Below, piece by piece: positions 1 to 59,100 of a DNA stretch of 64,000 bases (within the stretch, counting starts at the first letter, position 1; the number at the start of each line of letters is the position of its first letter). This stretch comes from Perna viridis. Lineage: Eukaryota. Both the position numbers and the translations under genes were made by a program. The notes below the pieces were generated by a model, which was not told where the DNA came from, searched no databases, and was given only the letters and a program-made list of their open reading frames with translations. The stretch spans positions 28,024,001-28,088,000 of the forward strand of contig CM074518.1 in the NCBI GenBank assembly GCA_037379345.1, read 5' to 3'.

Positions 1-1
1 A

Positions 2-806
2 AACAGTTATGCGACACTAACACCATTGCAGCCTCTGCCTCCTATTTCTACAGTGTCGGATAAATTTAACCAAATTCAGAGTACATGTGGAAATGGATTA
101 ACTTTGATGAACAATGGACTTGGTGCCGTAAATGTTATGGATATTAATACTATGAACACATACCGTTATGATACAAAAATGATGAGTATGAACCTTAGTC
201 CAGCCAGTATCCAGGGGCAGACAATGAACATGATGACAACAAATGGATACAACCAGGCTATGTCCCCTTATGGTTACAGTGTTAATGTCAGCGTAGGAGT
301 TAGTCAAAATGGACTACCGTCACCAAAATCAGAACATAGATCGCCAGTTTTATCACCTAACACATTAGCATCATATGACTCTTATCGCAATCTCGCTACA
401 CAACCAGCTCGTCTGCATTCCCCTAATCCAATGATGTCATCTGTGAATGGACTTCATGTTAGTTCTACCGTTACACCTGACGCATCCCCTCACAGTCATG
501 GAAGTAGTCCGCAACGTGAACGATCTCTTGGCCCTATGGACACTCAAAGCAATAACAAACAAGAACTTGAAGAAATTAATACTAAGGAATTAGCACAGAG
601 AATAAGCAGTGAATTAAAGCGATACAGCATACCACAAGCTGTATTTGCACAAAGAGTGCTGTGTCGAAGTCAAGGAACTTTAAGTGATCTACTGCGGAAC
701 CCTAAGCCATGGAGCAAACTGAAATCAGGAAGAGAAACATTCCGGAGGATGTGGAAATGGTTGCAGGAACCAGAATTCCAACGCATGTCGGCTCTAAGAC
801 TGGCAG
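2..806 (+). CDS. ONECUT: ONECUT/HNF6-class transcription factor, coding exon (5'-truncated by the window): TP box + CUT domain
   Basis: The frame from base 2 reads NSYATLTPLQPLPPISTVSDKF (ONECUT TP box), then the CUT domain EEINTKELAQRISSELKRYSIPQAVFAQRVLCRSQGTLSDLLRNPKPWSKLKSGRETFRRMWKWLQEPEFQRMSALRLA. Phase-1 donor CAG|GTAAC at 806/807. The ORF-track start at 26 is an internal TTG. Confidence 0.97.
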
Positions 807-3800
807 GTAACATTTGATCTTTTCACCCGTCCAGTGGAAAATTTTATTCTTGTTAAAATAGTAGTAATCTTTATGTTGTCCCTCCTAAAACGAAATTGTT
901 GTATATATTTTGCATTTTTTTTTATTTTCAGTTATTTGCTAATTTGTTTGCTTTGTTTTTGTTTTGATTTTCAGCCACGTGTAGATATTGTAGTGACACC
1001 ATAGTATATTGACTAAAAAGTATTGAACAGTCGAAAGTAGCTTTCATTGACAAAACCATTTCAGATATCAGAGCTGATAAATTGCATTGGCTTGTGTATA
1101 ATGCTATTGAATATTGACAAGTGAAGTTATTCTGCAATCAACAAAATTAAGATAAAAATATTTGATTTTGGTGTAAATCTTAAGTCTTTCAATTCATTAA
1201 AAATGAGACCAATATCTCCCCATTTCTTTTTTTTTTCATTAAATGAGCAGCTCAACCCCCATGGCACACTTGGCATATTTAATTTAATTGATATGTCATA
1301 TTCTCATTAAGGGAGATGTATTATTCATAACTCAATAGTAAATTTCCTTTGTCATACAGTAGCAGTGGCATACACATGTAATATCAGCTTTCCATTGTTC
1401 ACAGTCTATCTTGTTTGTGTTGACAAATGTGTTAATACTGCTATATTGACTTAATTAAGCTTGTGAGGTGGTCACCTGTCTGTTCTAACAAAAGATTAGG
1501 ACATATACAACATCTGTTTTTAATGTGGCTTGTGGCACCCTTTGTTAACTCTTCAAAGACCAAAATTTACCTGGAAATTTACCTGTAGTATTCTGTTCAC
1601 AGCTACATTTGTACTAGTTCTAACATAAAAATTTTAAAAGCCTCTTTAAATATTTAGAGATTTTAACAAGTTATTTTAATATGCAAAGCTGTAATTTATT
1701 TTTTGGTTTGAAATCTTCTTTTAAAGCCTTTATTGTGAGTCTTGAAAGGTTAAAGAAAATGTGACTGTGTACACAAATGCATTTAGTCCTTTTTGTCACA
1801 AAAGAGATATACATGAATTATTATACCTGTCCAAACATCATATTTGAACATTATGTTGAACTTTTCAGATAATGCCTTTCAAAATTCCTTTTAAAGGGAA
1901 ACTTAAAATCAGGAAAAACTAGAGTAATTAGGAGCTTTCACTGCAATTTACTTTAAATAACTTTCGGCATGTATTGTCATGATTAGATACTGCTTCTTTT
2001 CTTACATTTGAAAGGAAAGAAGTCAATGAGCACTTAGCAAACCATGTATGATTTCATATAAAATTTTCTATTTACCTTGCTTAAAATTTAGTCGAAAAAG
2101 TTAGGAGACAGGCATTTTTCCCTCGCTGACAATTTTACTGATAGGTACATGTACAGTAGTATTCATTGAAATCATGAAATTTCAGCTTTGTAATTTTATA
2201 CTATGGAAGTTTCTGATGCTTTGCTGACTGCTAAGCTTCAGTTGTTTCTTGATAGATACTAGTTACATGTAACTTCTCATTGAATCTTGTATTATCCTTT
2301 GAAGTAACTGATACAAAACTGAACATGTGTGGACAGTATGCATACTTTGAAACAGATTGATGAATAAAAATATATCTGTAAATACATTCAAAAACGTAGC
2401 CAGTAGTACATTTTTTTCAAAGCATGTAGACCTTTTTGTCATTTTAAAATTCAGTCCAATTCTAGATATAATAATGTAATTGCTAAAGGTCTTGGGCAAG
2501 CTAACCAAAAAAAAAGGAACACAACAGTTTTCAATCCAGAAGGTATCTATGGATTGCATGATTAATCTAAAATTTTGCATGGCTGCTTTCCTGTTAGAAT
2601 TGCTGTTTCCATGTAAATTTAGACAATCATCTTTGTACAATGTTCATTGTGTATAATATTTGACAATGTAACATTTTTTGTACAAATATAAATGTACATG
2701 AATGAAAAAGTACATACATGAGGCATGATAGTGAAGCAGTATTGTCTCCCTTGATGCCCTTAATGAAAAACTGTATAACAATGTCTGCATATTTGAGAGA
2801 AGATGTACATTGTGTCTATATATGCTTATTAAATGTAAATGTACATGAAAAATGCATGTTTAAAGGCAAAGCTGTATTATTTTCAATATGAAAATTGAAA
2901 TAGCTGCATGATCAGATTTCATATGTGGATACAAATGTATTTATATTAAATTTTAGATAATATTGTACAACATAGCAAATGTTTTATTACATGCATGACA
3001 AACGCATTTCACTCAAGTTTAGATTTTCATAAAAATTTATATAAAGAAAGCTACTTTTATCAATTTATCAAAAGATGATATATATGGACACAATCCTCAT
3101 ATTAATAATTGTAATTCCTTCTTGTTCTAACAGTGAATTGAGTCCATAGTTTTGACTTTAATCCCTCTCGTTATTTTGACGATGCCATATGGTGCTAACC
3201 AGTTGGCATTGTTTGTCCAGATATGTTTGTCACTCGGTGGCGAAGGAATTGTAATCTGACGTGGATTTGACTAGCCAATCTAATACCAACATTGTTCATG
3301 GCTTGGACGGAGATTTTTTCCGAAATATCATGTTCCATCTTTCAGCTTATCAAAGTTTTGTCATTCTATTTGTTTACTTTCTTTGTTGATAAATTGCAAT
3401 TTGTACACAAAATGTGACGATAGTCCACAGTTTTTGTTGCTTGAGTCATGTTGACAGTTATTATAAAACTTAAGCATATTAAAAATGAAATGAATTCCAT
3501 ATCAAAGAGGAACACAGTAAACAGATCACTCGGACTGCAGAGAAAAGCTCGATATGTAGGGGTATATCTAAGTTATAAACAAGAATTTTAATTTAAATGC
3601 CTTTAAATGGGCCTTCTTAAGATTTCTGTGTATATAAACACAAGCAATAGGTGGTAAATTACATTCATGTCAAAATTTAAAATTCCTAATCACAAAAATT
3701 ACTTGTCATCTTAAACAAAATATTTTCTTTCTAATGTGTCTGACTTTGAAACATGTTAGTACAGATTCAGAGAATATGATCAGTGTGTTGTGAACTTTTC

Positions 3801-4946
3801 TTAAAAGTTGATAACCATTTTTAAAATGTTCTATTCAGGAAGAAAATTAAATTTTAAAGATCTTGATAACTGATATGTAAACATGAAAATAATTCATTTG
3901 GGTACAAAGTCCATGAATTCAAGAAAAAGGAAAAGTAGAAATCAGAACATCAATGTTCTTAGATTCCACTTTCAGGTCTTGTAAAAATGTTCATGCACTT
4001 ACAATGTAGAATTATACCTGTATTCTGCATCAGTGTCATTTTAAGATGTACCGGTAAATGCATATTGTATAATTTTTACATGAGTGCATTTATAAATACA
4101 GGTACGAAATGAAATGTTCTTTTATCAGTTCATGTACATGTATGAATTTAATATGTCCTTTGGCTTTGTAATACATTTTGTTGTCTATTTAAATTTAAAA
4201 AAGAATGTACATGTAAGGGTTTAACTTAACCACTTAAATATACTAAAATGTCAGACTGTATTAGGAAACTATAATTATACATGTACAACATCAACAAATT
4301 TAGTGTAACAAGGCGTCGTCAACATCTGTTCCAATTTACATCTCCATCTGTTGTGTGAAAGTAATACATGTATGTGTTATATATGACTAAATACCTGTAT
4401 AATGATACTTGTATGATGTACATGTATGACATTCATATATTAGCACTGCCATGGTGGATTAACAATTGTTGCTAAGGAACTACAAGTATAAATTTAATTA
4501 AATTTTTAAATTCATAGATTATGCTCTACAGAATGTGCAGAAGTACATAAAATAACATGTTCATGTGTATGTACATTTGTACATGTATATTTTTATAATG
4601 TGATGACTGCATCCAAATTATTTCCATGTGATCAATGCCACACATTGACATCGTGGTGCTGAGCTATTGAAGTGCTTGCATTTTCTGTTTATTTTTCAGT
4701 TGAGATCCATTAATTGTCATTAAAATCAAGATATTTTTTAAGATATAATATTTTCTTTTAACTTAAGACCTTAGATTTTATGATTTCCCAAGACTTGACT
4801 TTATATGTGACAATTTTGCCCATAACTTATATGTCAGAAAATTTTCACAACACATTTTCTTTGCAGGGACTAGGCTAATTTTTCTTTTCTTTCATTCTTA
4901 TTTTCTGTCTTTTACTTTGATTTTTAATAGCTTTCTGTCTTTTCAG

Positions 4947-5003
4947 TTTTAGTTAGCTACAAGATCCTGAATCACCATCGACGGAAGTCGTTGATTGGTC
5001 AAG
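4947..5003 (+). CDS. ONECUT: Putative 57-nt cassette exon A in the ONECUT CUT-HD linker (VLVSYKILNHHRRKSLIGQ)
   Basis: A long pyrimidine tract (~4879-4944) follows a ctaat branch-like site and ends in CAG. The 57 nt are open in phase 1 and end at donor AAG|GTATTT. Confidence 0.55.
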
Positions 5004-5869
5004 GTATTTTACAAATTTACATTTCTAGGAATGGGAAGTAGTGTACCTTCAATACTACTAATCAACGACAAGTACTCCCGCCTGTGGCTTGCTCACTACT
5101 AATACTACAGTAAAACAAAAATATATATTCATTTTGTACCTTCTTCAATTGAAAACTGTTGTGTGATATTTGATAAAACAATGACTACAAAAGTGACATG
5201 TATTTTAGCTTAGCACAATGGCTGTTTTTTCCTTGTTCATTATTTTATTTTTGAAAGAAAAAAGCTGCATTCTGCATGGTTGAAAAAGTGCATGAAACTT
5301 AGGCATGTTGATTTTAGTTGATTAGAAAATAAGTAGGCTCTTTACTCCAGCACGACAGTTTATTGAACCATGCTACTTCATCTTTGCTTGTTACAATTAA
5401 TGCTATAATATAAATGTACTCACAGTAAATGGTAGATCTTTACAAAGAAGAAATATTATCTCAAACACCAAAGTAGGCATCTCATATATTTTCTAGGCCA
5501 TCTTGCTTCTGCAGTTATTCATATAAATATATATGACCAGGACCATAGCCAGATGATTAGGCTCTGCTGTGATATTTTCAATCAGAGTTTGTTTTTTCAG
5601 ACACGCCACTTAGAACACAAATTAGAATTGCCTGGCTAAGGCCCTGTCAACTTGGACTAGATAATCAAACTTTTATTACATTTTGTTTTCAGAAAAATAC
5701 CTTTTAAAAAAATATGAGCAGAATCTCTAAAATGTGAACATGTTTATTGATTGTACTGTAGATAAAATTGATGCTTGTCTTATTGCTAACCAAATGTAAA
5801 GAGGACATACTTGTCTAGAGATTGATGTAAGTCAAAGCTTTGTGCACATCTTTCTGCAATTTTCCTTGT

Positions 5870-5945
5870 TCATTGACCCATGGACATTTTTTCCACTTGG
5901 TAGGGTTGTTGTCTCTTTGACATTTTCTCCATATCCATCATTTTT
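5870..5945 (-). repeat. Short interspersed repeat fragment; related copy at ~23538-23590 (+)
   Basis: Shared core GATATGG.GAA.ATGT.AAAGAGACAACAAC.CTACC in opposite orientations. Confidence 0.55.
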
Positions 5946-8900
5946 ATATTCTATATGACCATTCACTCTCTTAAAGTTTTCAGTGTTGCTTAGATGGCCA
6001 GTGAAGATGTTCATTGCCTGTAGTCATTGTTTTAGGCAGGTGCTAAAAGCAGCATGTCCAGTTACTAATTCAGTTAGCGGTCTGCCATGTAAGCAGATAT
6101 TAGTTTTTTTCTCAAGGGCAAAAAGTCTAGAGGAACATGTTAATTTTAGAAATAGGTAAACACTACTTGAACTAAGTGGATCTTTCCAATTTAAGACGAC
6201 TCATGTAAGATAAGGTAAAGCACTTTATTCTTTAATCCGATCAATTCATTCAAAACAATTGTTGGTGATGCGACAAGCTATTTGTGATTTTGAAGCATAA
6301 TATCTCAATGACAGTTTAGGGAAGTGACAGTTTTGTTTTAGACTAAAGGAAGATTACTTTAAAAAATGTAGCATTTTTCATATGATAGCAAAAGTCCCTA
6401 TTGACACTCCTGAGATTTCTTTCATTTGTCAGAGAAAGTCATTTTATTTTCCATCACTCCCTAATGCTGCTCTTTTGCAAAAGACAGAATTCCTCATCGC
6501 TCGTATACAAAATCTTAGATCTTCAGTGGGGTTTCCATTAAAACCTATTGTTTAACAGGATGTGCTGTATGTTGCCACATTCTACATGCATTTTAAATGT
6601 TCAGTGCAAGGGGGTAAGATAGAATTTGAAAATCTTTGAAGTGTTATCACCTTGCAGAAAAATGAATTGTAAATTCTACCTGTAGTGATTTTATTTTATC
6701 TTTCATAAAATATGAATTATATGGGTTTTGCTGATGAAAAATTGAAAGATAAAGGTTACTTTCTCATTGAATTGAAGACTAAAAAATCGAGCAACAGGAA
6801 AATTCTGAAATTTATAAATTGCGTACAGGGTGAGAAAAACAAAGAATTACGAATTGTTTTGTGAACATAATTTTCAATAAATGTATTTACATAAGAATAT
6901 AGAGCAGGGATATTGAATCATAAAATTATTAACATTTTTAGGTTGATGAAATTTCCGCATCTGCATTTTCACTATAGATGTGGTCACCAAGCTCCCCTTA
7001 GTCCTCATGGAAACTGAAAATTTGCAGTCTCATAATATGAAAGGGTACATATATGAGCTATATCTACTTGTACATGTATGAGAAACGCTTTATTTGCCCT
7101 AACTGCAGGGGTTGGTGGAAATGAAAGTCATTTATACCGGGTTTGGTAAAAAATTCTTAGACAGGAGCTGCTTGCCAATGTACCTCAGAAAGTTTTTTGA
7201 CACTATTTATCTTATAATAGTAAATTCCTCAATTGACGCTTATCATATGTCCCCTTCAGTCCACTGTCAAGATATTTTCCCAGCAAGATACAACTTGACA
7301 TGTTTTTCAAGAGTTTTTAATATGAGAAAACCATAATCCAGACTGAATACATTCTTTGCTAGGCATTCCATGGAAGTGAAAGTTAAGAGACGATAACCCA
7401 TACATAGTGTCGTATCTCGTTCTTGTCAGATCAAAGTTATCTCTGTTCTGACAAGTCCTGGCTCTTCAATATGACTATTTTGTAAACTTAGGTGATTAGG
7501 TGTTTTTGGCCCACTAGTCGTCTACAGTGAGGATTCTCATACTCGATGGGGGTGGTCGGCAGTCTACACTACTAAATTATTAAACAGAAAGTATTTGATT
7601 GACAACAAGCTTATCTTGTACAAATTTTCATCATATTAATCCAAATAAATGGCTGGTTTTGATATACCCCCTTGTAAGGAACCTTGAGACTTATATGCTT
7701 TTACTAGGATTTGACTCCATAGTAAGATTTGTGAAACAGCAAATTTTAGGTGTCAGTATGACAGTGGCCAAGTCTGTTCTTGTTGATTTTTCACATTCTA
7801 TTGAATCCTAAGCAGTAGGTATAGGCTTTAGTAGAGGCTTCAAAATTCTGCATAGATGTCAACATGATAAATGTTTGAAATCTGGGTCCAACTCCACAAA
7901 ACATGAAAAGTTACTGAAGTTGATGAGAATATTCTTAACTGTTTGTGTTGTCATTCAATCCAAACACTTTTGAGTTACCAAGGAAGTTCTCAAATTTAGG
8001 TATTGGTTAATATTTGAGGTGTCTGGATCTGCATTTTGAACCTTGAAAATTTGTACCTTTGTAGTAATGTTAGAAAAAAACTTGAGTCTGCTTTTGCCCA
8101 GGAAACTAACTTGCTATGTACCAAATTTTGTATCATCCTAGTTTATTAATGGCTGTTTTTATTTCCATAGAACAGCTTGATCCATTTCATTACCTCCTGT
8201 CTATTTCTGTAACTCTTCTTCAGTAATTGGAAGTGGTTCGTCTCCAGTCTTGTTAAGTCTGCAAATTGTGACCTCTGGTTAAACGAAACATAGTTCAGCC
8301 ATTTTCTATGAATAAAACGATCCCTATCAATAGAACAAACTATAGTCCTTCAATTTCAATAGAAAATAATGATGCTTTTTGCTTCCAAAATGGAATTTTG
8401 CTGTACTCTGTAAAAAGATGAAGTTTAAACATAAATAGCTATGTTCGGTTGGTTTCAATTAAACATAGAATCCTACCCATTAAGTATTTGGCGTAAATAT
8501 TGGATTTCGTAAATGTCCCTTTGTAATGGTATTCACATCAAGACTACTCTTGTATGATGAAAGCTAAAACAATACACACAAGAAGATACTTGAAACCAGA
8601 AACGGTATTATTTCTTTGTTGGAAGTTAAACAAATTGTCGTTGAAAACAGTTGTATTCCTAGCATTCCAAATTTAGTGGCTTAAGCAGGACTGTGTACAT
8701 ATGTTGGAAGTCATCTAAGACATATGTATACAAAATAATGTATTTTATACCCTAAAAAATAAATTATATTCTCTCTTAAATCTCCCAAAATCTTGAGTCC
8801 TTTATCCAAACTCAAAGAAGACTTGCTCGTGATTTGATTCAGTGGATTATTTTTACCCATATATTCCTTTTTTTTTTTCATTTTCTAAATGTGAAATCTA

Positions 8901-10980
8901 GTGACCTAGAAAACTGAACATATTTGGCTGTTCAATTAGGTTTTAACAGATTTAGAGTCTAGTTAATTGTACTTATTTGACCAATTCAATAAGGTTTGTT
9001 GTAAAATCTCTTTGACTTTTCTTTTCTTTTGATGTACTTAGGAGTATTTAAAAAAAAAACAGTATTGAGAGTGAGCAAGAGGCCATGAAATTGAATAGTT
9101 AGTTTACCAACGATTCTAAATTTGCTGATTCTTTTCTTTCTTTGTGAGATAGTGAATAGACCAGATTTTCCCTTTTAATTCAGAAAATAACAGCTTGTGT
9201 TACTATCTATGAATTTCCTACCATGATTAAAAGTCAGCTTTCTACAGTCGGGTTATTGTCTGCTGTTCATACAAGATTTTTTTTTTGTGTGTTTAGTAAC
9301 ACACAATATTCTATGATTCATCCCTTCACCTTTTACAGAAAAAAAGAAAGGCATGAAGATTTAATGATACACAAATGAAGCCTGCTCTCCCCATGTGAAA
9401 AAATACTATTAACCATGGTCATTATATTGATTTTTGCCGAATGCACCAATCAAGACTTAAACTGGAAATTGTTCCGTGGAAGGAAATACTCTGGCAGAGA
9501 TAGACACGCTTGATAAAGCACTAACACAAGTATCATTTTGTATGAATATAATTTTTCCATTTATTTGGATCTGTCATTTAGATCCACAGTTGCCATGGCG
9601 AGAAAGCAGCTTTAGTTGTTAACCTGTAGAAAATGTTTCTCTCCAATCCAACATTCTGCACACCTGGATTCCGGTACGATGTCTGAATTACACACCAACA
9701 CATTATCTCATTTACCTTTCATGACTAATAACAGAACACGGGTGTTTTACTTCGTTGATGATGAAAAAAATAATCCTTGTAGGGCCTTCATCCATTATTC
9801 ATCCCTTTCTGAATAAAACTATTTATACCTCGCATAGCTGTATGAAGATTTCAAAACAATGGCAAATCGTGGGCTTTGGAATCTTGAGTACAGAATGATT
9901 TAATTTCCAACTCGCAATCTAGTTAGGAACTGTCAGCATTAAAAATGAAAACTATTTTTTACAATTGAATGGCATCGAGAACAAAGACGAAAGGATTGTA
10001 ATTGTCATTAACCCAAACAGGATGTTGTTTGACATGACAATAACTTCTAAAGATGATCTGGTGCATGAAAATTTTAAGGATGAAATCCTGAATATTCCAA
10101 GCCTCAATGATTATGAATTTGTATAGACTAATACATAAAATTAATGGAAGAAAATAAAATGATTAACTCAGATCTACCATTAATTCTGTGACACATATCT
10201 TATGTTTTATATCATATACATATATTTGATATATTTTATATGTAGATATGCACTGCACATATGGACAAAATTTATCTTGTTTCCAGGTGCAATGTGATGT
10301 CCTATTTGTATACATGTATATTTTGTTCATGCATATTTATGATTTTCTTTTTCATTTTCAACTCTGCTTGTTTTTTTTGCTTTTCCAGTATGTTTTTGTA
10401 GAACATTTTGATTGGTTCTTTCTTTCAGGAAATTGGACAACCTTGATAGGAACTTTACTAACAAACTGGTAGTTTCTTTTCAAATTCATTTAAAAGGCAT
10501 TGTGCTTTTCTGTTCAAGTCCAAGTGTTAAAGGATGACCCCTGTTGGCTAAGTCTTATAAGAGCTGTCCATAGGAATTAAAAGTACATTTTAATGTAGGT
10601 TATTATATTTCAAAATAAAATTATATAAGATGGCTTTGTTAAAGTAAAATTAGTTATTATTGGCTGTTTTCTGAATATAACAATGCCAGATTTACTTGTA
10701 GTACCTGTCAAGGTTGTGTCACTAAATGACAGTTTTAAATATTTTGTATTCTTCAGTTCATCTGTATTTTTATCTCTGTTGAGAGTACCAATGTAGCATG
10801 CATCTGAGAAACATAACGAAGCCTTTTATTTCAGATTCAGAAGTGCTCAGTTTGTGTACTGGTTACTGTACTTCTGGCTCACCTATGCTTAACGAAGTAC
10901 ACCAGTAGTAACTGTGACATTATTTGTCAAAAATTTATTTGTCGATAGCTTTATATAAATATTCCCTTTTCTCTCTGTAG

Positions 10981-11037
10981 GCAAAACGTTCGGTGAAGTG
11001 TCGATAAAAAAGGAAGAAGGTGGTTTTGGCACAATAG
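10981..11037 (+). CDS. ONECUT: Putative 57-nt cassette exon B in the ONECUT CUT-HD linker (GKTFGEVSIKKEEGGFGTI)
   Basis: Acceptor ttcccttttctctctgtAG, then a purine-rich 57 nt open in phase 1, donor TAG|GTAGGC. TGCATG lies at 11077. Confidence 0.65.
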
Positions 11038-14000
11038 GTAGGCATATACAATGTTGTCAGAATATCTGTTGTTTCCTGCATGTCTTACTTTGTTCTGAAA
11101 AATAGGGGGTTGGGGAAAATGCAACATTTTCAGTGTAAGTTAATTGAAAATTGTCTCCCTTTCTTCCCTTAAATTCATTTATTTCTTTTTACATGATGTA
11201 TTACGACCCTTCTATTTTCATTTTAAAATGCAATGACATGCACAAATAAGTGAATTTTGCTGTGGAATTAAGTTTTCAATGGCTTACGGCCTACTGTCAC
11301 TAACGACAAAAGGTTTTATAAACCTTGTTCACAATGGGCTGATTTAGATCAGGGGTAACATCTGCCATTCTGCAACTCAAACAAATATAACCATAACCAG
11401 TCCCTTTGCATGCTTTTGTCGTCAGAGTTGACAATCATCTCTCCTGGTATATGTGAATGTGTAAGGGAAATTTTATACTTTAATATCCTATGAACCATAT
11501 GTGTATATAATTTTACACCAGATGCATGCTAAATGACAACATTCTTGTATTTTATGTTCAAAGTTTGACGTAGATCTGTTCCTCAGTATTTAGGTTTTTT
11601 TTATACATTAGATGATTAATTTGAGAAATCTTTCAAATATTATTGTTTTTATTCTTAGTAGATTTCCTAACACCTGCTGTATTATAAAAATGTTTTCATA
11701 CTTTTAGAGACATGTGTATGATAGAATCTTTCTCATTTAAAATTTATGAAATTAAATTAAAAATTGATGTTCTGACATAGTTTAAGAGTCTTCCCTAAAT
11801 AAATGATTCTTTGCTATTAATGACATATTGGAAGTTCTATTTTAATGGTGAAAATGTTATTTTATGAAATTTGGACTTCAAAATTAAATTACATGTACTA
11901 TGTATTTAGTTTGTATCAAGGGAATTAGAAGTATTTACTTTGTGACATTAATGACATAATATCTGCCTTCGGGTGTCCATTACACCACATGGTCAGTTAA
12001 TTGTTTACAAAGGAGGAAACGACCATATAAATTATTCAAATGCAATTTATTCCTTTATATCGCCCTGGCATAGTAGGCACACTACTGAATAGGTAATGAA
12101 CTCCGTTCTTTTGTCTGCCTTGAAGAGAGGTGAAATTTCATTTAAGACAAACCACTCGATAATGATGGGAACAAATCCTGTGTTCCGATTGTATTTTCGC
12201 ACCGCTAGATGTGTATAAAAAATTTCGCAAACATTGAATATCAAATTCATTCTCCACTGTGAATACAAAAGAGAAATATTGCATGTTTCTGGTCCTATCT
12301 AAATAACATTTCTCTTATTGAAACTCCTGTGTTTACATTTGTTGAACAATTACAAATGAGAAAATTTGTTTGGCTTGGGAGTTTAAAAATTTAATATTGT
12401 CCAGGTAGAGAGAAGTATAAGGAAAGTTTTATCAACAAGGAAAATCCGTATTTAGAAATTTGGGACAAATTTCAATGCAGAGCGATTTATTCAAGAATTT
12501 GTTTGCTCATGACCTAGCGTGACCTTGTTTTGCATGCGAGTAGGGTTCGTGTTGTCATACACACTTCTAACTATCTTGAGTTGCACTTCTTGTGCGACTT
12601 GAGCATCCTTAACTGATAAGGGAATTGTATACATATTTGGTTCATTTAGTTTGTTTAGGTTATTAACTATTGCAATATTGTCACAATTTAATAGGACTTA
12701 AAATGCATGTTTTGATTAATTTGGGCAATAGGGAATTAAGTTGTAACTAGGCTGTCACTTCTGTTTTTAAAATTAAGACCTCCATGTTTAGAAAAAGAGC
12801 TAAGAGTGTGGTCGAAATTTTACTTCAATTTCAATTGCTTTTCTCTTTGTCTGATGGTATGATATAAAATGGATTTCAGTTAATCCTCAAAATTAGTACA
12901 TACTTGGAATTTGTATAAAATACTAGTAAAGCATCTTCAACCTTGTTCTCTGTTTAGATCCAAATTCTGCTCAGTCCTTGAGATCAAACTGTATGTAACA
13001 TGGACAGCAAATATTTCACTTTTAAAATGAGCATGCTTGCTATATTTAGAGTAATTATGTAGCTGTCTTTGTAAGAATCATGCAAAATCTGAAAAATGTG
13101 ATACACCCCAAACAAGGCTACATATCTTTATTTTTGTAATTAAGTTGTTTTATGGGTCTATACTATGAAATGTGTAATTATTCATTCAAATCTGCCTGTT
13201 CTTAGGAGATAATCAACATTGAAAATTCAATAGATTCTATTGCATTTAAGTGTCATTTACAGAGTTATCCTCCTTTATTTTGAAATATACAGTGCATTCT
13301 ATACAATTTTTATCTCCTAAGAACACAGGTTATATGAGAAATTGAATGTTTATTTCTGTTTACTACAATTCAAACAAAATATCAAAAATCAAAATATGTA
13401 GGCTTTTAACCCATGAATCACATTTTGCATGATTCTTAGCTGGAGTGCTACATTGATCAAATTACCCATTTAATAAGCTACAAAAAGGATTGTTTACACT
13501 GAAATGAAGGCAGATTTTGTATGTATTTCATATGGGCAGAGATGCAATCATACTTCAAGTTACAAGTACATGTTAGAAACATGTTTACTGATAAATGGTT
13601 ATATTTCTGATATTTTTTTCAAGGAAACCTTTTCCTTTTAAACAAAAGATATAATCATATATCATCTCCAAACTTGATGGTTTTTTTTTCCCAAATGTTG
13701 GGTTGACTGGTTACCAAACTCAACAACAAGACTGGAGGAAAAAGTAAACCAGTTTTAAGTAATTCCATGTTTGTAAACATCAGAGAACATGTGTCAAAGC
13801 GTATTAAGCTTTAATGATTTATTGATTCCCTCGTAATTCTTTAATAGTTGAAGGTTATTGTGAACTCCTACCAAAAAAACGATAAATCCATAAATTGCCA
13901 ATGTTAAAATAAACATAGGTTATTGCGGAATAAATGGTATTTTCATATTGAAATATTTGCATGGAACCCTGAGAAAGGAGTTCAGCTGTAGTATTCACAC

Positions 14001-15798
14001 GTTCTAATGTTATTTGAGTGTGCTCTGCTAACAAGCCTGGCACCAAGACATAATGAATATTTGCTTTCCTCTGCGGTGAAGCACTCGTAATCTCACTGTG
14101 GATGGAATTTTAAGATAAAATGATTTGACCTTTTAATTTAGTACTTTATGGTCCTATATTTAATCTGTTTCTGTTCATTTGGCCAGTTCTATCATTTGAA
14201 CTAAATATTTTTATAGAATATGTAATATCAACTAGTATGAGGAACCTTTGTTTAAAATTGTCCAGACTTCTGAATATGTGAATTCTATCAAGTAATAGGA
14301 ACTGAGGTTATGTAAACAATTCTAGAAGCTTCTTAAATTTTGATGTATTTAACAATTTAACAAAAGGCTAGATTTCCCCACTTCTAAGTGAACATCAAAT
14401 TTTTTTTCTCAACATGTTCATGAATTGTCATGATACCCTAACTCCTCAGATATTAGGTTTAATCATTCTTGAGTACTTAAGCTTTAGCTGTCCTTTAGAA
14501 CGACAATTTATCTTGTAAAGATCTGTCAATATCTAATTCACATGTATGAAATATTACTACCCTAGCTATAATATTCCTGCCATTCACATTTGTGTGTGTA
14601 GTTAGCACATCTTCTGATAAGCTGTGAGGAAGGCTACACATGACAAAGAATGTTCAAAGGTCACTTTCAATATTTTATCTCATTCTTTCTCATGTAGAAT
14701 TAAATGATACATATATATTAGGTATATACATGTTTATATTTGTGTGATAATTATGCATGGTTTTTAAGTATAAAATTTCACAAAATTGTTTTTAAAGAAA
14801 AAGTTCTCATTAATGAAAATAAGGAAACTTGAGTCTGCTCTAAGATATCTGTTGGAAATGTAAATAACATGGAAATGATGGCAGTCCATTGTTAACCGTC
14901 ATGCCTCGCCAATTCATCATATTAGCGTAGAAAGTTGAGAATCGTCATGTCTCTTGGGGAAATCAAGTTGTCTACTCCACTTTCGTTGTCAGTCTCTGCG
15001 GACACGTCTTTCCATATTAGTTTTCTTTGTTAAATACCATGGCAACAAGACCCGAAGCTAAGGTACAACCTCGGCTTGAATTATTAAATTGCAAACGATG
15101 TCCTACATGAAGAAATTTTTCTTTACCATGCCATGCAGAAGTTACATTGTTAGAGAGTGTCTTTGTTCGGGGAAATACAAGTGTCTACGTGGTATTTTTA
15201 TCAATATATTTAATTACGTTTAAACCATTTGTTTATACAATCTTCATGTAGTAAAGTGTATGCTACTGAATATTTTGCCTGGCCTTACTTGTCAAGATTT
15301 TTATCAACTTCGAAAAATTAATTTTCAAACATCATATTTATAAGGAGATAAAAGAATGGATTGCATAATATTTCTAACATAAACTTTAACATGAATTCCT
15401 CCATAAAAGAACATATTTTTGGAACTATATGTCTAAATCATGCAGTAATGTCTATCATTCTCCTTGTGTGTTCTTTGAAAAAAAAGTTAATATGCTCACT
15501 ACCAGTATTTAAAACTTGTAGAACTTCAACGTTTGGAGGAATGGATGAGAGGTCATTGAAGCAGAGATCACTTAAAGGGGGTTATAGAGAACTTAATCCG
15601 TTTATTTTTTAAATTGCCCTAAATTTATCATTTTAGGAGAAATGTTGACAAAAAATTCAAAGATGTAATCATTCCACCTATATATTATCAAATTGAGAGA
15701 GTCTTACTTCTTATGACACGGACTGAATACGAGCTTTATCTAGTATCCAGTATCGTCAGATTGTTTCATATTGTAAGTTGTGTTTTTATTTTTTTCAG

Positions 15799-16073
15799 CA
15801 TGCAAAAGAAAAGAACAGGAAATGTCTCCTCAAGAGAACAGAGCTCCAAAAAAACCTCGTTTAGTGTTCACAGACATTCAGAGGAGAACATTACATGCAA
15901 TTTTTAAGGAAACAAAAAGACCTTCTAAAGAAATGCAAGCTACTATTGCCCAACAACTCGGGTTAGAAGTCACGACAGTGGCAAACTTTTTCATGAATGC
16001 ACGCCGGCGATCTATAGACAAATGGCGTGATGACAATGGAAATGACAATCGGGAAGGGGTGATCAAGAGCTGA
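15799..16073 (+). CDS. ONECUT: ONECUT terminal coding exon: linker + atypical homeodomain
   Basis: The acceptor ttttttcAG|CA joins the upstream G to give ..RLAACKRKEQE.., then PKKPRLVFTDIQRRTLHAIFKETKRPSKEMQATIAQQLGLEVTTVANFFMNARRRSIDKW with the ONECUT F48/M50 signature. TGA at 16071-16073. Confidence 0.97.
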
Positions 16074-19000
16074 GTTGTCCTATTTTCTGACCTTAGCAAT
16101 ATTTCTACTTTGAGTATACCTGACTAGTTAAATGTTGTGTGGAGATTGGTTATATATGTGTATGATTTCCATGAAGCAATGTAGAAGTAGAAAAAAAGAA
16201 GTTCGTCCATTTTTTTTATGTGCAAATATATTTGTATCTTCTTGCTAATGCAGAACAGTGACAGCATTACCAAGGAAGAAGACCCATTGTACTATGAAAG
16301 CATAATTAGGCTAATGTGCATTGTCTCAACTTGCTGAGAAGAGAGTTCGACACTAGTCTTGCTAACTGAAGACATTATCAGTGATGCATGTCGATAATAT
16401 GTTAACAGACTTGCGCTGCAGTGGTATAGGACGTGGTTTAATATAAACTGGTTTTGTCTAATGTAGACAAATAGCTGAAGTAGATTTTTTGCTAGTAGAA
16501 TGGTGGTGTTTCCATATATTACGACCTTATTGTCTCATTTTTCCTTGTTAGCGAAAAACCATTATTGTGCGATGGTGCAAACATTGTTTAGTTTCATTCC
16601 TAGTGTTAATGTTTTATCAACATTCCATTTGATTTCTATGTATCTGTTTGAGGACAGAATGAGACCAGGATTTGATTTGAGAACATTCCAAATTCTAGAT
16701 TTAAAGAAAATGGCTCACACAATCTGGTTAAAAATTAGTTTATTTTCAAAATATGGTATTCGAATTTGAGCAATTGATTACAAAATTTGTTAAATTTTTG
16801 GAGTGTTGATTCAAATTTTAGGTTGTATTTTAGACAGTATGTACTATCAAATCTACAATGTATATTTTTGTCAGTAATCTCTATAAATTTGATTTTTTTT
16901 TTAAATTGTTAAGATAGCTTGAATAGTAGTAATGTATCAACAGAATCTCAAAATCATATAAGAGATTTTAAGAGTATGTAACAACTAAGTCTAATATTAC
17001 ATTTTGGTATCTGGTTTCAAAATAATGTCTTTACATTAGTCAAAGGAATTAGTTTTACTGAATGGAGTTGATCATTTTGACATCTTTGGATCTGACTTCT
17101 CTTTTTTAAGCTTTTGGCAGAAAAACAATCATATTTTTCATCCTCATTTGTGTTTGCCATGACATATCAGGTAGCTAGGTAGTAAGTTTCATTGTGTTCA
17201 TATAAACAATTTGGTTGTTCTGATCTAGTCGTAGCTTGTCTCGTAGGATTTCAGAAAAAAAAAACTTTGCCACAGGTTTCTGTGTTGTGTGTGTTTGGTC
17301 ATACAATCACTGTGTTTTATTGTGCAATATTTATTGATTTTTGTAATGGATTTTAGGTGATTATTTTGTTAATTATTATTTATTACATTTGTTGATTAAT
17401 TTATTTGTTTAATGATGGACATTCATTTGATGATTTTTTTGGGTGATTGTCATTATTGATCCAGATGCAAAACATTCCACTGACTCAGAATCTGTTCAAA
17501 GTATCCATGTCATTAAGATGCTTTAATATGGCTTCTGTAGTTAGAAAGATTTAGATCTGACATGCTTAAGAGAACAAAATGGCAAAACCCAAAAGCTTTA
17601 GCTTACTAGACTTAGTGGCAGCATATTTTGTTGTAAAATAATTTCCTGTCTTGGTTTGACGAATACACCAACAACAGACAATGAAACTTGTTCAGTGCAT
17701 TAAAAACTAGGGCACTTTGTGTCTAAAATAAATGGGTTGTAATGCGGTTTTGCCCTAGCATTGACCTAACAATCATATGCTTTGCATGCTTGTTAAAATC
17801 TTGAATGAAATCCAAATTTTTTTTAGGTTTTTCTATTTACTTTCTGCAGAGAATGAAATTCCCAATCACTTACTGTAATCTACAAACATGATCTATTAAT
17901 ATCTTTTTGCTCATTTTACACTTAATTCCTTTTATCCCCATTTACTTGGCTTTTTAAGAAATCCATTGATATACATTTTTTTCCAATATTTTGTTATCTT
18001 TTTATATAGATTTTGCCCTTTTTACAAGACTGCCAACTTTTCTTTATTTCTTTTTTTCTGTGTTATGGATAACCAACAATTATATTGTACTGCTTTAGAT
18101 CATTTTTTACTACAATTTAAATTTGAAACATCAGCAAGTTAGCTGTAAATTAAATTAAATTTCAGAATTACCCAGTTTTATTCATTATGATATTAAGAAT
18201 CTCAATCCAAATTACACAAGTTTTATGCTTTCAGTAGAAAGGCAAAGACAGCCATTTTGTGTCATGTGACAAAATATGTACCTTTTTATTTCATACATGT
18301 ACTGATAGTATGGACAGGTAAATGTAGTTATGGTTGTATCTGGTGGTCTGGAAAGCTTCATAATTTAACTGTTGGTTGTCTATTTGTTGATGTTGGTGTA
18401 AGAATTTGTGTTTATTTATTAATTTATTAAATGTTGTGTTTTGAAAAAACATAACGTGTAAATTTTCTGTGTATCATATAAGAATTTGTACATGTCTGAA
18501 CAAATTGTCCTCTGTTGCATGAGGCATGCAATAAAAGACGTATTTAAAAGTTTTTAGAGAGGTGTATAGACAAATTTTCATCATCCTTGTACATACATAT
18601 GGGTCATTTCATAGTCAGTCTATGGGTTCTTGACATGTACATGTAAATACAATGCCTTTTTATGACCGATCAGGAATTTTTGTCCCCCTATGAAGTACCT
18701 CACTCTGAGAACAGATAAAACATATTTGCATGGTCATTTTCTGTTTTTTAGATATTTTTATAGATAGATGTTTTTGGAACAAGGTGTTGTAATTAAGGTA
18801 TTATTGGTTTTTATGCATTTTACAAGTAACTTTTTTTCTATTTTATGGAAAACACAAGATCTGAAATGATTTCTCACTAGAATCTCAATAAGTAGGTTAT
18901 GGCTTAACTAGTTAATTCGTACACAATAACTTACCAATCTTATTTCCCTGGGGGAATTCTTCAGTAGAGAATTCTATATTCAGATAGTGCTTCATATTTC

Positions 19001-35890: not shown

Positions 35891-36028
35891 ATCTGGCATC
35901 GATTTCACAAAAAGTTTCAAGTGTAAAGTTGATCGTAAGTAATGATGTCACAACCTAAAATAGCATTGTGACGTCAGACTTTATGATCAATTTCACATTT
36001 ACGACTTTTTGTGAAATCGATGCCCGAT
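35891..36028. mobile_element. Palindromic MITE in the presumed BICRA 3'UTR
   Basis: Perfect 21-bp terminal inverted repeat GGCATCGATTTCACAAAAAGT (35895-35915 / 36004-36024), plus internal arms ttgatc/gatcaa and tgatgtcacaa/ttgtgacgtca. Confidence 0.8.
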
Positions 36029-56100: not shown

Positions 56101-59100
56101 AAAAATTGTCATAAACTGACAATTTTTATTTTTAAGTTCATAGAAATAGATTGTCAGAGACTATTGATGCAGTTCCCATGGTAATTGTTGGAAGTAATTG
56201 GGGATCTGGTATTGTGATTGGTCATAAAAATAACAGATATCTTCTAACATGCAGTCATGTGTTAAAAGGATCAGACTATAATACTGGTAAGATTTATGCT
56301 AAGGATGTACATGTATGTTGGAATCATATTGTATCACAAATTATTGATGGGGATTATTTGGCACAATGTTACATTCAGCTGTAAATGTCATCAGTGAATT
56401 TGTGTATGCTTAACTCAGTAGAATTCTCAATGAACAAAATAAAAGAAAATTGCATTGCAGATAAAGATTGAAAAGTGATGAGATATTTTAGATACACAAT
56501 TAAAACATTTAGTTATTGGTTTCTGTTAACAGTACATATTCACATGCATGCAAGAAATTTTTGTGCTCCTCTTATGGAGTATAACTAGACATATCAAAAC
56601 TGAAGAATTTCACTGGTATTCTCTCGACATCAGTGCAGGAGCAAATATTAATTTATTAACAGAAAGTCATCAAGACAGCTTAACCACATACATTAATAAA
56701 AAAAACTTTGATGGATTTTGACACATCATTTTTTTGGTTAATGATCACTAAATGAAGCACCATGCATTTTATTTTTCGTCCTTTTTCTTATTTATATCAG
56801 GGTATAATACTTTAATCACTAAGAAATAAAAAAAAATAAAAAGATCAGTGTAGTATATGCTTTAGCACAGAAATTTATTTTAATTACTTTTCTTCAAATT
56901 TATAGTAAAGGTTAAGTACACTGGCAACAGAATGGAAAAGGGGAAAGTTGTTTACAAAACACCAGCTGGTGGACAGTTTGATATTGCACTGTTGTCAATT
57001 TCTTCAAGTTCCATTCCATATGTGCCATTGGGAACAGTGCCAGTTGTTGAAGGTACCATACATAATTAGATTCCATGCCTATTATTATCATACCACCTGC
57101 ATATGTGGGGGTATATAGGTTTCACCCTGTCTGTCTGTCTATTTGTCTAAACTATTTTCAGCAGCTTGCAGCATTGTTATGAAACTTTGTGGGATATAAT
57201 ATATTCACATGAAGATTTGCATACTGTCAGGAATTTATGTTTGGACAAAAATTATAAAAAATTATGGCTTTTGAACAAAAGCATTTTTCAGCAAAATTTT
57301 GTCTCGTGTGTTGTCCACAACTCCTCTTTAACGACTTGCAGGATTGTTATGAAACGTAATGGGTTGCTAGATTACCATGTAGAGATGTGCATATTGTCAG
57401 GATTTTATGTGTGGACAAAAATTGTTGAAATGATAGCTGTTGGAACTTAGGTGTTTTTCAGCCAAACTTGGTCAGATGTGATGTCCACAACTCCACCTTA
57501 ACAACTTGCAGTATTATAAATAAACTCAATTGAGTGTTAGGTTACCATATAGAGATGTGCATATTGTCCATAACTCCACCTTAATGACTTACAGGATTGT
57601 AGTCAAAATCAATGAAGTGTTAGGCTACCGAGATGTGCATATTGTCAGGGATTAGTCTTTTTCTGTTATTGTCTTGTCTAAAAAAATAATACTGATTGCT
57701 GTTTGGAGTATGGTGTTTTACAAATTAAAGCAAATTGTGTAGTCTATTCACCATAAAAATTGTGTCCAATATAAATAGTATGTCCAGAATTGTCCCCAAA
57801 TGTACAGAGTTCAACAGGCTGTGGGAGGTATTAGTCCCATTAGGGGCAAGGTCTAGTTAATTATTAGCCTATCCATGCATGTCTCCTCCATTTATTTCCA
57901 AAGTAGCCACAAGTGTATTTTGGTTAGTTTTAAGTTGCAATTTTTTTCATACGTTTTTTTTTATTTGTTTATAAGCATCTTTTGGACCATTACCTTAATA
58001 TTTGAGTTAGTGTGCACTTAGATTTGTAGTGATAAAATATTTTAGAACAAAATCACGACTATTTTATATAAACCAGAAAAATTGATGTTTGTTACTATTT
58101 CGCACACTCTCAATCACTCTTCATATTTGGTTTCTATCAGATACTCAAAACAGATTATCTTATAATTTTTTGTTTGTTTGAATACACATTTTAAAAAGAA
58201 ATTAATTTTGTCTTAGACAACTGAAAAACAAGCATAATTTACTGTCATTTAACTTATTTAATTATAAAGGCCTGAAATTTACTGAGAAATATGGAAGGAA
58301 AAAATGAAAGGTTAATGAATCTGAAAAAATGCAGAAAAGTTGCTGTTAAGTGGTCTTTCAATTTAAGCAGCATGAAGGGAATAACTCTTTTGAATATTTT
58401 TTTCAGAAGACAAAGTTTATGTGATAGGACATGCATTGTTTGGAGAAGAGAAAGATTTAGAACCCACTATAACATCTGGTATTGTTAGTAAAGTTGTCAG
58501 GGTCAATGGTATACCTGTCATGATTCAGGTACATAAAAATGGCATAGAGTTATGTCCCTTTATTGCACTGCACAGAATTTTTTTATGTAGTTGTAGGGGA
58601 AAAAAATAAATGCATTTTAAAAAAATTTTATAAATGAAGATATACATTTTATATTTTTTTGATAAAACTTGTCACACAAGAACAAAAACTCGGTAAAGGA
58701 ACTTAAATGATATTTTTAATTAATTCTTAACTTTAAATTTCTCCAATTTTAAATGAAAAAAATGCTGTAATGATACACAGACGGTACATTGTATATATGT
58801 AAATTTTTAAAACCCTTCAAATTACATCATCTGTTTTTGTATAGATTTACTATATTATAAATGTATATTTTGTTAGATTTACCTGTCATTATTATTTAAT
58901 CCAGGGTAAGAAATATTGAAAAGACAACATAAAAATAGATACAGTGAGTACCTGTACAAAAATTCTTGTGTAGTTTTTATTAGGAAATTTTCATCCACTG
59001 CCAAGATTGTCTTAATTTATCATGAATAGTATAGTAATTATTTTATAACTATACCAGACAACTTGTGCAGTTCATGCAGGAGCCAGTGGAGGAGCATTGG

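Follow-up and report, generated by a model that had tools for sequence, protein, structure and literature searches.

The question raised by this locus is how a short optional exon between a mussel ONECUT protein's two DNA-binding domains is controlled, and what part is played by an RNA hairpin that can form at its 5' splice site. The window, by which we mean the whole 64-kb stretch of Perna viridis DNA that was analyzed, contains an ONECUT gene whose CUT and homeodomain coding exons are split by a 15-kb intron. The translation of positions 2-805 corresponds to the end of an ONECUT protein with its CUT domain (Pfam PF02376, E 1e-34, residues 190-265 of that translation), positions 15801-16070 encode the homeodomain, and the top named relative is the ONECUT protein of Mytilus californianus (88% over 268 amino acids). 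The open reading frame of exon 1 begins at about position -349, upstream of the window. Two 57-nt phase-1 exon candidates, exon A and exon B, are found within the CUT-homeodomain intron at 4947-5003 and 10981-11037, respectively. A first-pass annotation of the same DNA had described exon A as a cassette exon whose donor is buried in an exon-intron hairpin, and had read this hairpin either as a splice switch, perhaps opened by a STAR protein, or as a guide for ADAR editing. The features discussed below are collected in Table 1.

Table 1. Exons, splice signals, hairpin elements, and motifs of the ONECUT locus, in window coordinates; pairings and probabilities are those of the predicted fold.
Feature	Position	Strand	Description
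Exon 1 (large ONECUT coding exon, 3' part)	1..806	+	stops just past the CUT domain; phase-1 donor at 806/807
Exon A 3' splice region	4875..4946	+	branch-point-like CTAAT at 4875, long pyrimidine tract, likeliest acceptor CAG 4944-4946; acceptor use inferred
Cassette exon A	4947..5003	+	57 nt with a start at 4947, 51 nt with one at 4953; donor from reads, start ~4945-4955 inferred from binned depth
P1 outer stem, 5' arm	4987..4999	+	exon positions -17 to -5; pair probability 0.97-0.99
Donor (-3 to +9) in P2 and P3	5001..5012	+	P2 is 5001-5007/5043-5049, 7 bp, probability 0.78; P3 is 5009-5012/5038-5041, 4 bp, 0.74
Apical stem-loop and 3' arms of P3 and P2	5016..5049	+	predicted fold; apical stem 5020-5024/5029-5033
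Unpaired 7-nt side of the 1x7 internal loop	5050..5056	+	immediately 5' of the buried ACUAAU; possible toehold
P1 outer stem, 3' arm	5057..5069	+	13 bp, one G-U; contains ACUAAU motif 1 (5057-5062, ~2% unpaired)
ACUAAU motif 2	5098..5103	+	mostly accessible, 0.63-0.96 unpaired
RBFOX-type cluster	5273..5307	+	TGCATG at 5273 and 5289, extra GCATG at 5303
Cassette exon B	10981..11037	+	57 nt, major linker exon; seen in joints; conserved in mussels, scallops, and oysters
Homeodomain exon, to the stop codon	15799..16073	+	Pfam PF00046, E 9e-13; joint from exon B

Splicing and reading frame of exon A

Four sequencing runs were aligned to positions 1-16600 of the window, and splice joints were taken from two raw RNA runs, both from one study and read to ~19% and ~24%. 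In the two samples, the exon A donor is joined to exon B (5003 to 10981) by five and six reads, exon 1 is joined to exon B by nine and 27 reads (36 in total), and exon B is joined to the homeodomain exon by 16 and 13 reads. Of the 47 junction reads into exon B, 11 come from exon A, or 23% (95% interval 12-38%, pooled, one study). With 11 A-B reads against 36 exon 1-B reads, exon A is a minor exon that is spliced in along with exon B; the same 11 reads rule out an obligatory mutual exclusion of the two exons of equal length. Placed between the single CUT exon and the homeodomain exon and alternatively included in the mRNA, exon A has the arrangement of an ONECUT linker cassette exon. Exon A is genuinely alternative, with the confirmation limited to its donor. 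The cassette exon of the first-pass annotation is borne out by reads at its downstream end. Joints from exon 1 to the exon A acceptor, from exon A straight to the homeodomain exon, and from exon 1 to the homeodomain exon with both A and B skipped are not among the 15 joints listed out of 33, a list crowded by an intronic repeat.

The choice of acceptor determines the protein product. Alternative AG dinucleotides would start exon A at 4931, 4953, or 4957. Starts at 4947 and 4953 keep the reading frame and add 19 or 17 residues, respectively, to the linker that joins CUT domain and homeodomain, and starts at 4931 and 4957 lose the frame and reach stop codons 8 and 4 codons beyond the end of the CUT domain. 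Use of either of the latter two acceptors would yield a CUT-only protein or a decayed transcript, making exon A a poison exon, a product that we consider unlikely. Both acceptors are present in the sequence, the missing exon 1-A joint would be compatible with their use, the exon A peptide is unconserved (see below), and CUT-only isoforms are annotated in scallops and oysters. Against this product, CAG 4944-4946 keeps the frame and lies behind a clean pyrimidine tract, and a steady-state inclusion of ~23% would be high for a decayed form. In addition, the two-bin depth ratio at exon A in run X24 is 2.5, nearer to the expectation for starts at 4947 or 4953 than to the 3.3-3.9 expected for 4931, a weak indication that comes from ~8 reads. 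The depth around exon A in the same run leaves little room for intron reads, again with ~8 reads.

The peptides of the two linker exons differ in their distribution. Exon B scores at least 40 in 28 of 463 ONECUT-like proteins, which come from mussels, scallops, and oysters, and one of which is from Perna viridis itself. The 463 proteins were assembled from three protein searches (the best 120 of 806, 1242, and 1282 matches) and two cluster look-ups, and the mytilid sample consists of 36 of the 46 members of four mytilid clusters. For the exon A peptide, no orthologue was found in the 463 proteins (maximum score 32 of 92), the best score against 224 full linkers is 20 of 92, and none of the 16 full linkers of the mytilid clusters contains it, 13 having exon B and three having neither exon. 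This absence is weak evidence, because annotations often miss rare isoforms and because 36 of the 46 cluster members were covered; judged by these comparisons, exon A may be lineage-restricted or too rare for annotation. Clams, snails, a chiton, and an octopus have linker exons of their own that are unrelated in sequence, and many molluscs have several. A different frame of exon A scores 36 against linkers of Mya; that frame is unreachable from the phase-1 donor of exon 1, and the match was set aside as chance. Orthologues of the hairpin were sought with a loose two-arm pattern, which matched at least 118 metagenome loci, none of them homologous (best E 0.42).

Several observations concern the coding exons more generally. 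The end of exon B (11030-11037) is two residues shorter than in Mytilus and the other mytilid clusters (19 versus 21), and this short form is also that of the Logan protein P0319. CUT-only ONECUT isoforms of scallops and oysters are represented by P0139-P0141, P0145, P0146, P0150, P0203, and P0206, and an alternative C terminus after exon B is alike in three scallop species, which suggests a conserved homeodomain-less form. The 3' UTR, which starts at 16074, is long: a 6235-nt contig of run X6 covers exon 1, exon B, and the homeodomain exon, and position 16600 is reached after only 2164 of its letters. A T/A difference at position 151 is present in 26 of 43 reads of run X24 only, and a G-to-A difference at 16142 is present in all covering reads and contigs; both are most likely alleles.

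The hairpin and the accessibility of the donor

The pairings described in the first-pass annotation, including the 13-bp outer stem with one G-U pair, are all present at their coordinates, as are the ACTAAT motifs at 5057 and 5098. In the predicted fold, the 3' end of exon A pairs with the downstream intron to form P1, and the donor is held in the inner stems P2 and P3. The comparison with shuffled sequences that had been proposed as a check came out in favor of a stable structure: RNAfold gives -27.9 kcal/mol with a z-score of -4.38, and none of 200 shuffles folds as well. The 83-nt hairpin alone has a z-score of -5.70, and in four wider contexts of up to 1 kb the pair probability of the outer stem is 0.97-0.99 and that of the donor stem is 0.77-0.78. 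A stable predicted stem-loop thus spans the exon-intron junction, as in inhibitory 5' splice-site stem-loops.

Because these z-scores rest on windows picked around the hairpin, broader controls were added. On the plus strand of the 64-kb window, helices of 12 bp or more that have no more than one G-U pair and span up to 150 nt number 16. With settings tuned to P1 (at least 13 bp, at most one G-U, at least five G-C, span at most 100), six helices are found in 264 kb, versus a mean of 0.53 in 15 shuffles. Among 6392 windows of 83 nt, 17 fold equally well or better. The exon A donor has the best z-score, with a tailored window, among the 190 AG/GTA sites scored of 472. In a ranking of 781 AG/GTR sites in 264 kb, for which the best of eight windows per site and a fitted z-score were used and 685 sites had a qualifying window, the exon A donor is ninth (about the top 1%), and the other two proven donors of the gene rank 301 and 427; as most of the sites are not real donors, this ranking gauges the local sequence background. 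A top-1% rank among the handful of donors examined is modest evidence. Neither the donor of exon B nor that of exon 1 has a hairpin comparable to that of exon A (z -0.5 to -1.7 and +0.7), and a hairpin internal to exon A, with z -1.8 to -2.2, is not significant on its own.

Two other origins of the hairpin were rejected. A transposon or repeat origin is opposed by the finding that the 301-nt region and the arm pattern are both found at a single place in the 723-Mb genome (very common words skipped). For a known RNA family or microRNA precursor, the only Rfam match in 4500-5600 is mir-2002 at 4547-4596, which lies outside the hairpin and scores 25.7 versus a gathering score of 49.

An exceptional burial of the donor by the hairpin is not supported. 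Freeing the 9-nt U1-binding donor costs 4.44 kcal/mol, which is the median of 249 donor-like sites (300 drawn), 52% of which cost as much or more. The U1-binding nucleotides are no harder to open than usual, and for this reason the structure is not classed with proven inhibitory donor stem-loops. The larger region from -17 to +6 costs 14.3 kcal/mol to open, in the top 3% of the 249 sites; exon B, which is mostly included, has an equal cost of 14.2 kcal/mol for the same region in the same calculation. The inner part of the hairpin can re-pair with the outer stem still closed. The stem is predicted to hide the 3' end of exon A together with one of the two ACUAAU motifs, and the inner stem, which covers the weak donor, is predicted to be only moderately stable. 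Of the three proven donors of the gene, that of exon A forms the weakest predicted duplex with U1 (-5.7 versus -8.0 and -9.1 kcal/mol), and weak U1 pairing could by itself account for the low inclusion of exon A. Opening the donor costs 6.4 kcal/mol at 20 °C versus 4.3 kcal/mol at 37 °C, a trend common to any RNA.

Regulatory motifs and candidate mechanisms

The intron downstream of exon A contains two kinds of short motif. Two ACUAAY motifs within +6 to +110 are found at two of 780 donor-like sites, and at least two TGCATG motifs within +6 to +320 are found at five of 780, exon A being one of the sites in both cases; the rarity is somewhat overstated by these counts, as the counting windows were chosen after the motifs had been seen. 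The TGCATG/GCATG cluster at 5273-5307, which the first-pass annotation missed, is presumably an RBFOX-type signal. Together, the motif pairs make exon A look regulated, as opposed to splicing noise. Three TGCATG motifs and one ACTAAC motif also lie 3' of exon B (11077-11528), and exon B may therefore respond to the same protein families.

The ACUAAU pair has some of the properties of a STAR-protein site. A review describes QKI as recognizing NACUAAY together with a UAAY half-site no more than 20 nt away and, when bound in the downstream intron, as promoting exon inclusion (PMC9786888). In the intron downstream of exon A, NACUAAY cores of the QKI/STAR type are found at 5057 and 5098. No UAAY half-site is found within 20 nt of either core: the nearest TAAY sequences are the cores themselves, 41 nt apart, and the next are at 4925 and 5398. 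A profile search of the genome returned a STAR_dimer match.

We tentatively favor a reading in which exon A is a minor optional CUT-homeodomain linker exon of mussel ONECUT and the 83-nt exon-intron hairpin would damp its inclusion. By default, the weak donor and the hairpin would keep inclusion low. It would rise in some cell types when the ACUAAU pair is bound by a STAR protein (QKI/HOW type), which would have to compete with the stem for ACUAAU motif 1, and the UGCAUG cluster by an RBFOX-type protein. Inclusion would give an A plus B linker ~38 residues above the unspliced-linker minimum, and the longer linker might tune DNA-binding preference, by analogy with the isoforms of HNF-6, the DNA binding of which is reportedly the subject of a 1998 paper. 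Damping by the hairpin is consistent with the use of the donor and the A-B joint in two samples, the top-1% fold, the robustness of the stem to 1 kb, the single-copy sequence, the top-3% cost of opening -17 to +6, the two rare motif pairs, the STAR_dimer match, and the precedents of SMN2 TSL2, Mag exon 12, and MALT1 exon 7. It is opposed by the median donor cost, the possible sufficiency of weak U1 pairing, the equal -17 to +6 cost at exon B, the absent QKI half-site, the lack of a match to exon A in 463 proteins, the small number of reads (11, from one study), and an acceptor that is not among the joints listed.

The same results bear on a possible, if somewhat doubtful, reading in which the hairpin is incidental, exon A being minor through weak U1 pairing and regulated via ACUAAU and UGCAUG alone. 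The median donor opening cost and the weakest predicted U1 pairing of the three proven donors speak for this reading, and structures of this kind are not confined to exon A: of the six helices of this class in 264 kb, five lie elsewhere, and eight donor-like sites fold better. With no orthologue found in the 463 proteins, the exon may also be young. Against an incidental hairpin, a single minor donor of proven use combines a top-1% fold with two rare motif pairs, and one ACUAAU is part of the stem arm itself. In a further reading, considered unlikely, a lineage-restricted exon would be governed by a two-state RNA element that is either the 13-bp stem or a fold within the exon, the latter with both ACUAAU motifs occupied by a STAR dimer. 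Were it true, the CUT-homeodomain spacing would be set by cell type, through the levels of STAR and RBFOX proteins, and perhaps by water temperature. The mollusc transcription factor gene would then contain a splicing switch operated by protein, the exon, its motifs, and the structure having originated together.

A strict on/off gate, in which a STAR protein on ACUAAU motif 1 unzips the hairpin and frees the donor for U1, is very improbable on the folding results. When motif 1 is held single-stranded, the outer stem falls from 0.99 to 0.01, the donor stem falls from 0.78 to 0.32, and the cost of opening -17 to +6 falls from 14.3 to 11.8 kcal/mol; a STAR gene is present in the genome, and the 7-nt loop adjoining the motif could serve as a toehold. 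Against the gate, the opening cost of the donor is nearly unchanged, from 4.43 to 4.34 kcal/mol (4.3-4.5), and its mean unpairing rises just from 0.19 to 0.28, as the exon forms new pairs with itself and with the donor. Opening motif 1 itself costs 7.5 kcal/mol. As holding the motif open melts the outer stem, stem and STAR protein would compete for it, and a freed donor is not predicted. The earlier proposal of gating by structure and a STAR protein thus survives in its alternative exon, its stable hairpin, its rare ACUAAU pair, and the STAR_dimer match, and loses the release of the donor, the cost of which stays at 4.3-4.5 kcal/mol as the outer stem melts.

The other function proposed at the outset, in which the intron arm would serve ADAR as an editing-complementary sequence, appears quite unlikely. 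The edits would change Gln to Arg at A5001 or Ile to Val at A4994, or would be silent at A5002, which is at donor position -2, where the GluA2 R/G site is said to lie. All three adenosines pair with U, with no A-C mismatch, no continuous helix exceeds 13 bp, a 1x7 loop follows the longest one, and A4994 has a 5' G, a neighbor that is disfavored for ADAR editing. Both adenosines of the AAG codon (4985-4987), which had been counted among the potentially edited codons, fall outside the stem, and recoding of an unconserved linker peptide would have little obvious value. No difference in 4947-5070 is among the read differences listed, which leave out 173 rows; at ~8 reads of depth there, this speaks neither for nor against editing. 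The geometry is nonetheless that of known substrates: in Q/R editing of Tmem63b, too, an exon pairs with the intron that follows it, at the 5' end of that intron (PMC7939439), and R/G editing of GluA2, in exon 13, also requires a stem-loop with an editing-complementary sequence (PMC6393238), in the accessible parts of both papers. A_deamin matches are present in the genome (ADAR, ADAT, and ADAD not distinguished). Similar to GluA2 and Tmem63b, exon A is predicted to pair its end with the proximal intron and has an adenosine at donor position -2 within the stem; unlike those substrates, as far as the accessible descriptions go, it has no A-C mismatch and a large asymmetric loop, and a change at -2 would be silent.

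Comparison with known systems and neighboring features

Structured 5' splice sites have been described in vertebrate genes, and the comparisons made here draw on the accessible parts of the papers cited. In SMN2 exon 7, the stem-loop TSL2 blocks U1, as established by mutation, compensation, and probing (PMC1802598). Similar to TSL2, the exon A structure is an exon-intron stem-loop at the weak 5' splice site of an optional exon and is proposed to lower inclusion; the main differences are that the strong stem of exon A flanks the donor instead of covering it and that the structure is a predicted one (PMC1802598). Mag exon 12, which is controlled by hnRNP A1 and QKI, also has a hairpin that surrounds the 5' splice site of a cassette exon and coincides in part with a protein motif (PMC3683929), and its regulation by a STAR-family protein via the downstream intron resembles that proposed for exon A (PMC9786888). 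The Mag hairpin is short, with fragments of 15-29 nt that fold, and is conserved in seven vertebrates, whereas that of exon A comprises 83 nt and hides an ACUAAU (PMC3683929). In MALT1 exon 7, splice-site stem-loops are stabilized or opened by proteins (hnRNP U and hnRNP L), a likeness that extends to the proposed role of proteins at exon A; in contrast, folding of exon A predicts no release of the donor with the motif occupied (PMC9348792).

ONECUT linkers that vary by splicing between the pair of DNA-binding domains are already known, and the linker exons of molluscs are many and unrelated. HNF-6 isoforms differ in the linker between CUT domain and homeodomain (PMC8391549), and a spacer exon of skate onecut1 encodes 48 residues and is developmentally regulated, with activity kept (bioRxiv 10.1101/2025.07.30.667746). 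With a start at 4947 or 4953, exon A would share with both a frame-preserving optional sequence between CUT domain and homeodomain in the same phase-1 intron (PMC8391549; bioRxiv 10.1101/2025.07.30.667746). It differs in being unrelated to every linker compared (best 20 of 92), and RNA structure is not reported in the accessible parts of those two sources. The portion of PMC10515288 that was available contains nothing on linkers, and control of ONECUT linker exons is not addressed in the accessible parts of the literature consulted. A literature search that covered mostly titles and the starts of abstracts, with subscription journals outside it, found no paper on mussel or bivalve onecut splicing. 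A minor donor of proven use is combined here with a strong predicted hairpin and with STAR/RBFOX-type motifs within 310 nt, which makes the locus a compact test case. As this class of mechanism is well known in vertebrate genes, damping by the hairpin would, even if confirmed, extend a known rule to a mollusc and overturn nothing.

Other features were noted in and around the window. Positions 13055-13451, within the ONECUT intron, are a high-copy repeat with hundreds of reads on both strands and unrelated flanks; it has a perfect 16-bp inverted repeat at 13197-13325 and looks like a small non-autonomous transposon. At ~5900-5940, many partly fitting reads on both strands mark a fragment of another repeat family. 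A 22-bp inverted repeat at 35895-36024 forms the strongest short-range helix of the window. Outside the window, ~84.6 kb upstream of it in the L129-L130 region, there is a near-perfect ~40-bp hairpin (z about -11), and a weaker related copy lies ~7.8 kb upstream; the two probably belong to a repeat family. On the minus strand, a neighboring gene at 36683-46119 has long Gln/Ser-rich exons (open frames of 680 and 443 amino acids), the scanned pieces of which have no Pfam match. An exon-like piece of 40 amino acids on the plus strand, at 58407-58528, likewise has no Pfam match, and we take its translation to resemble part of a trypsin-like protease such as TYSND1.
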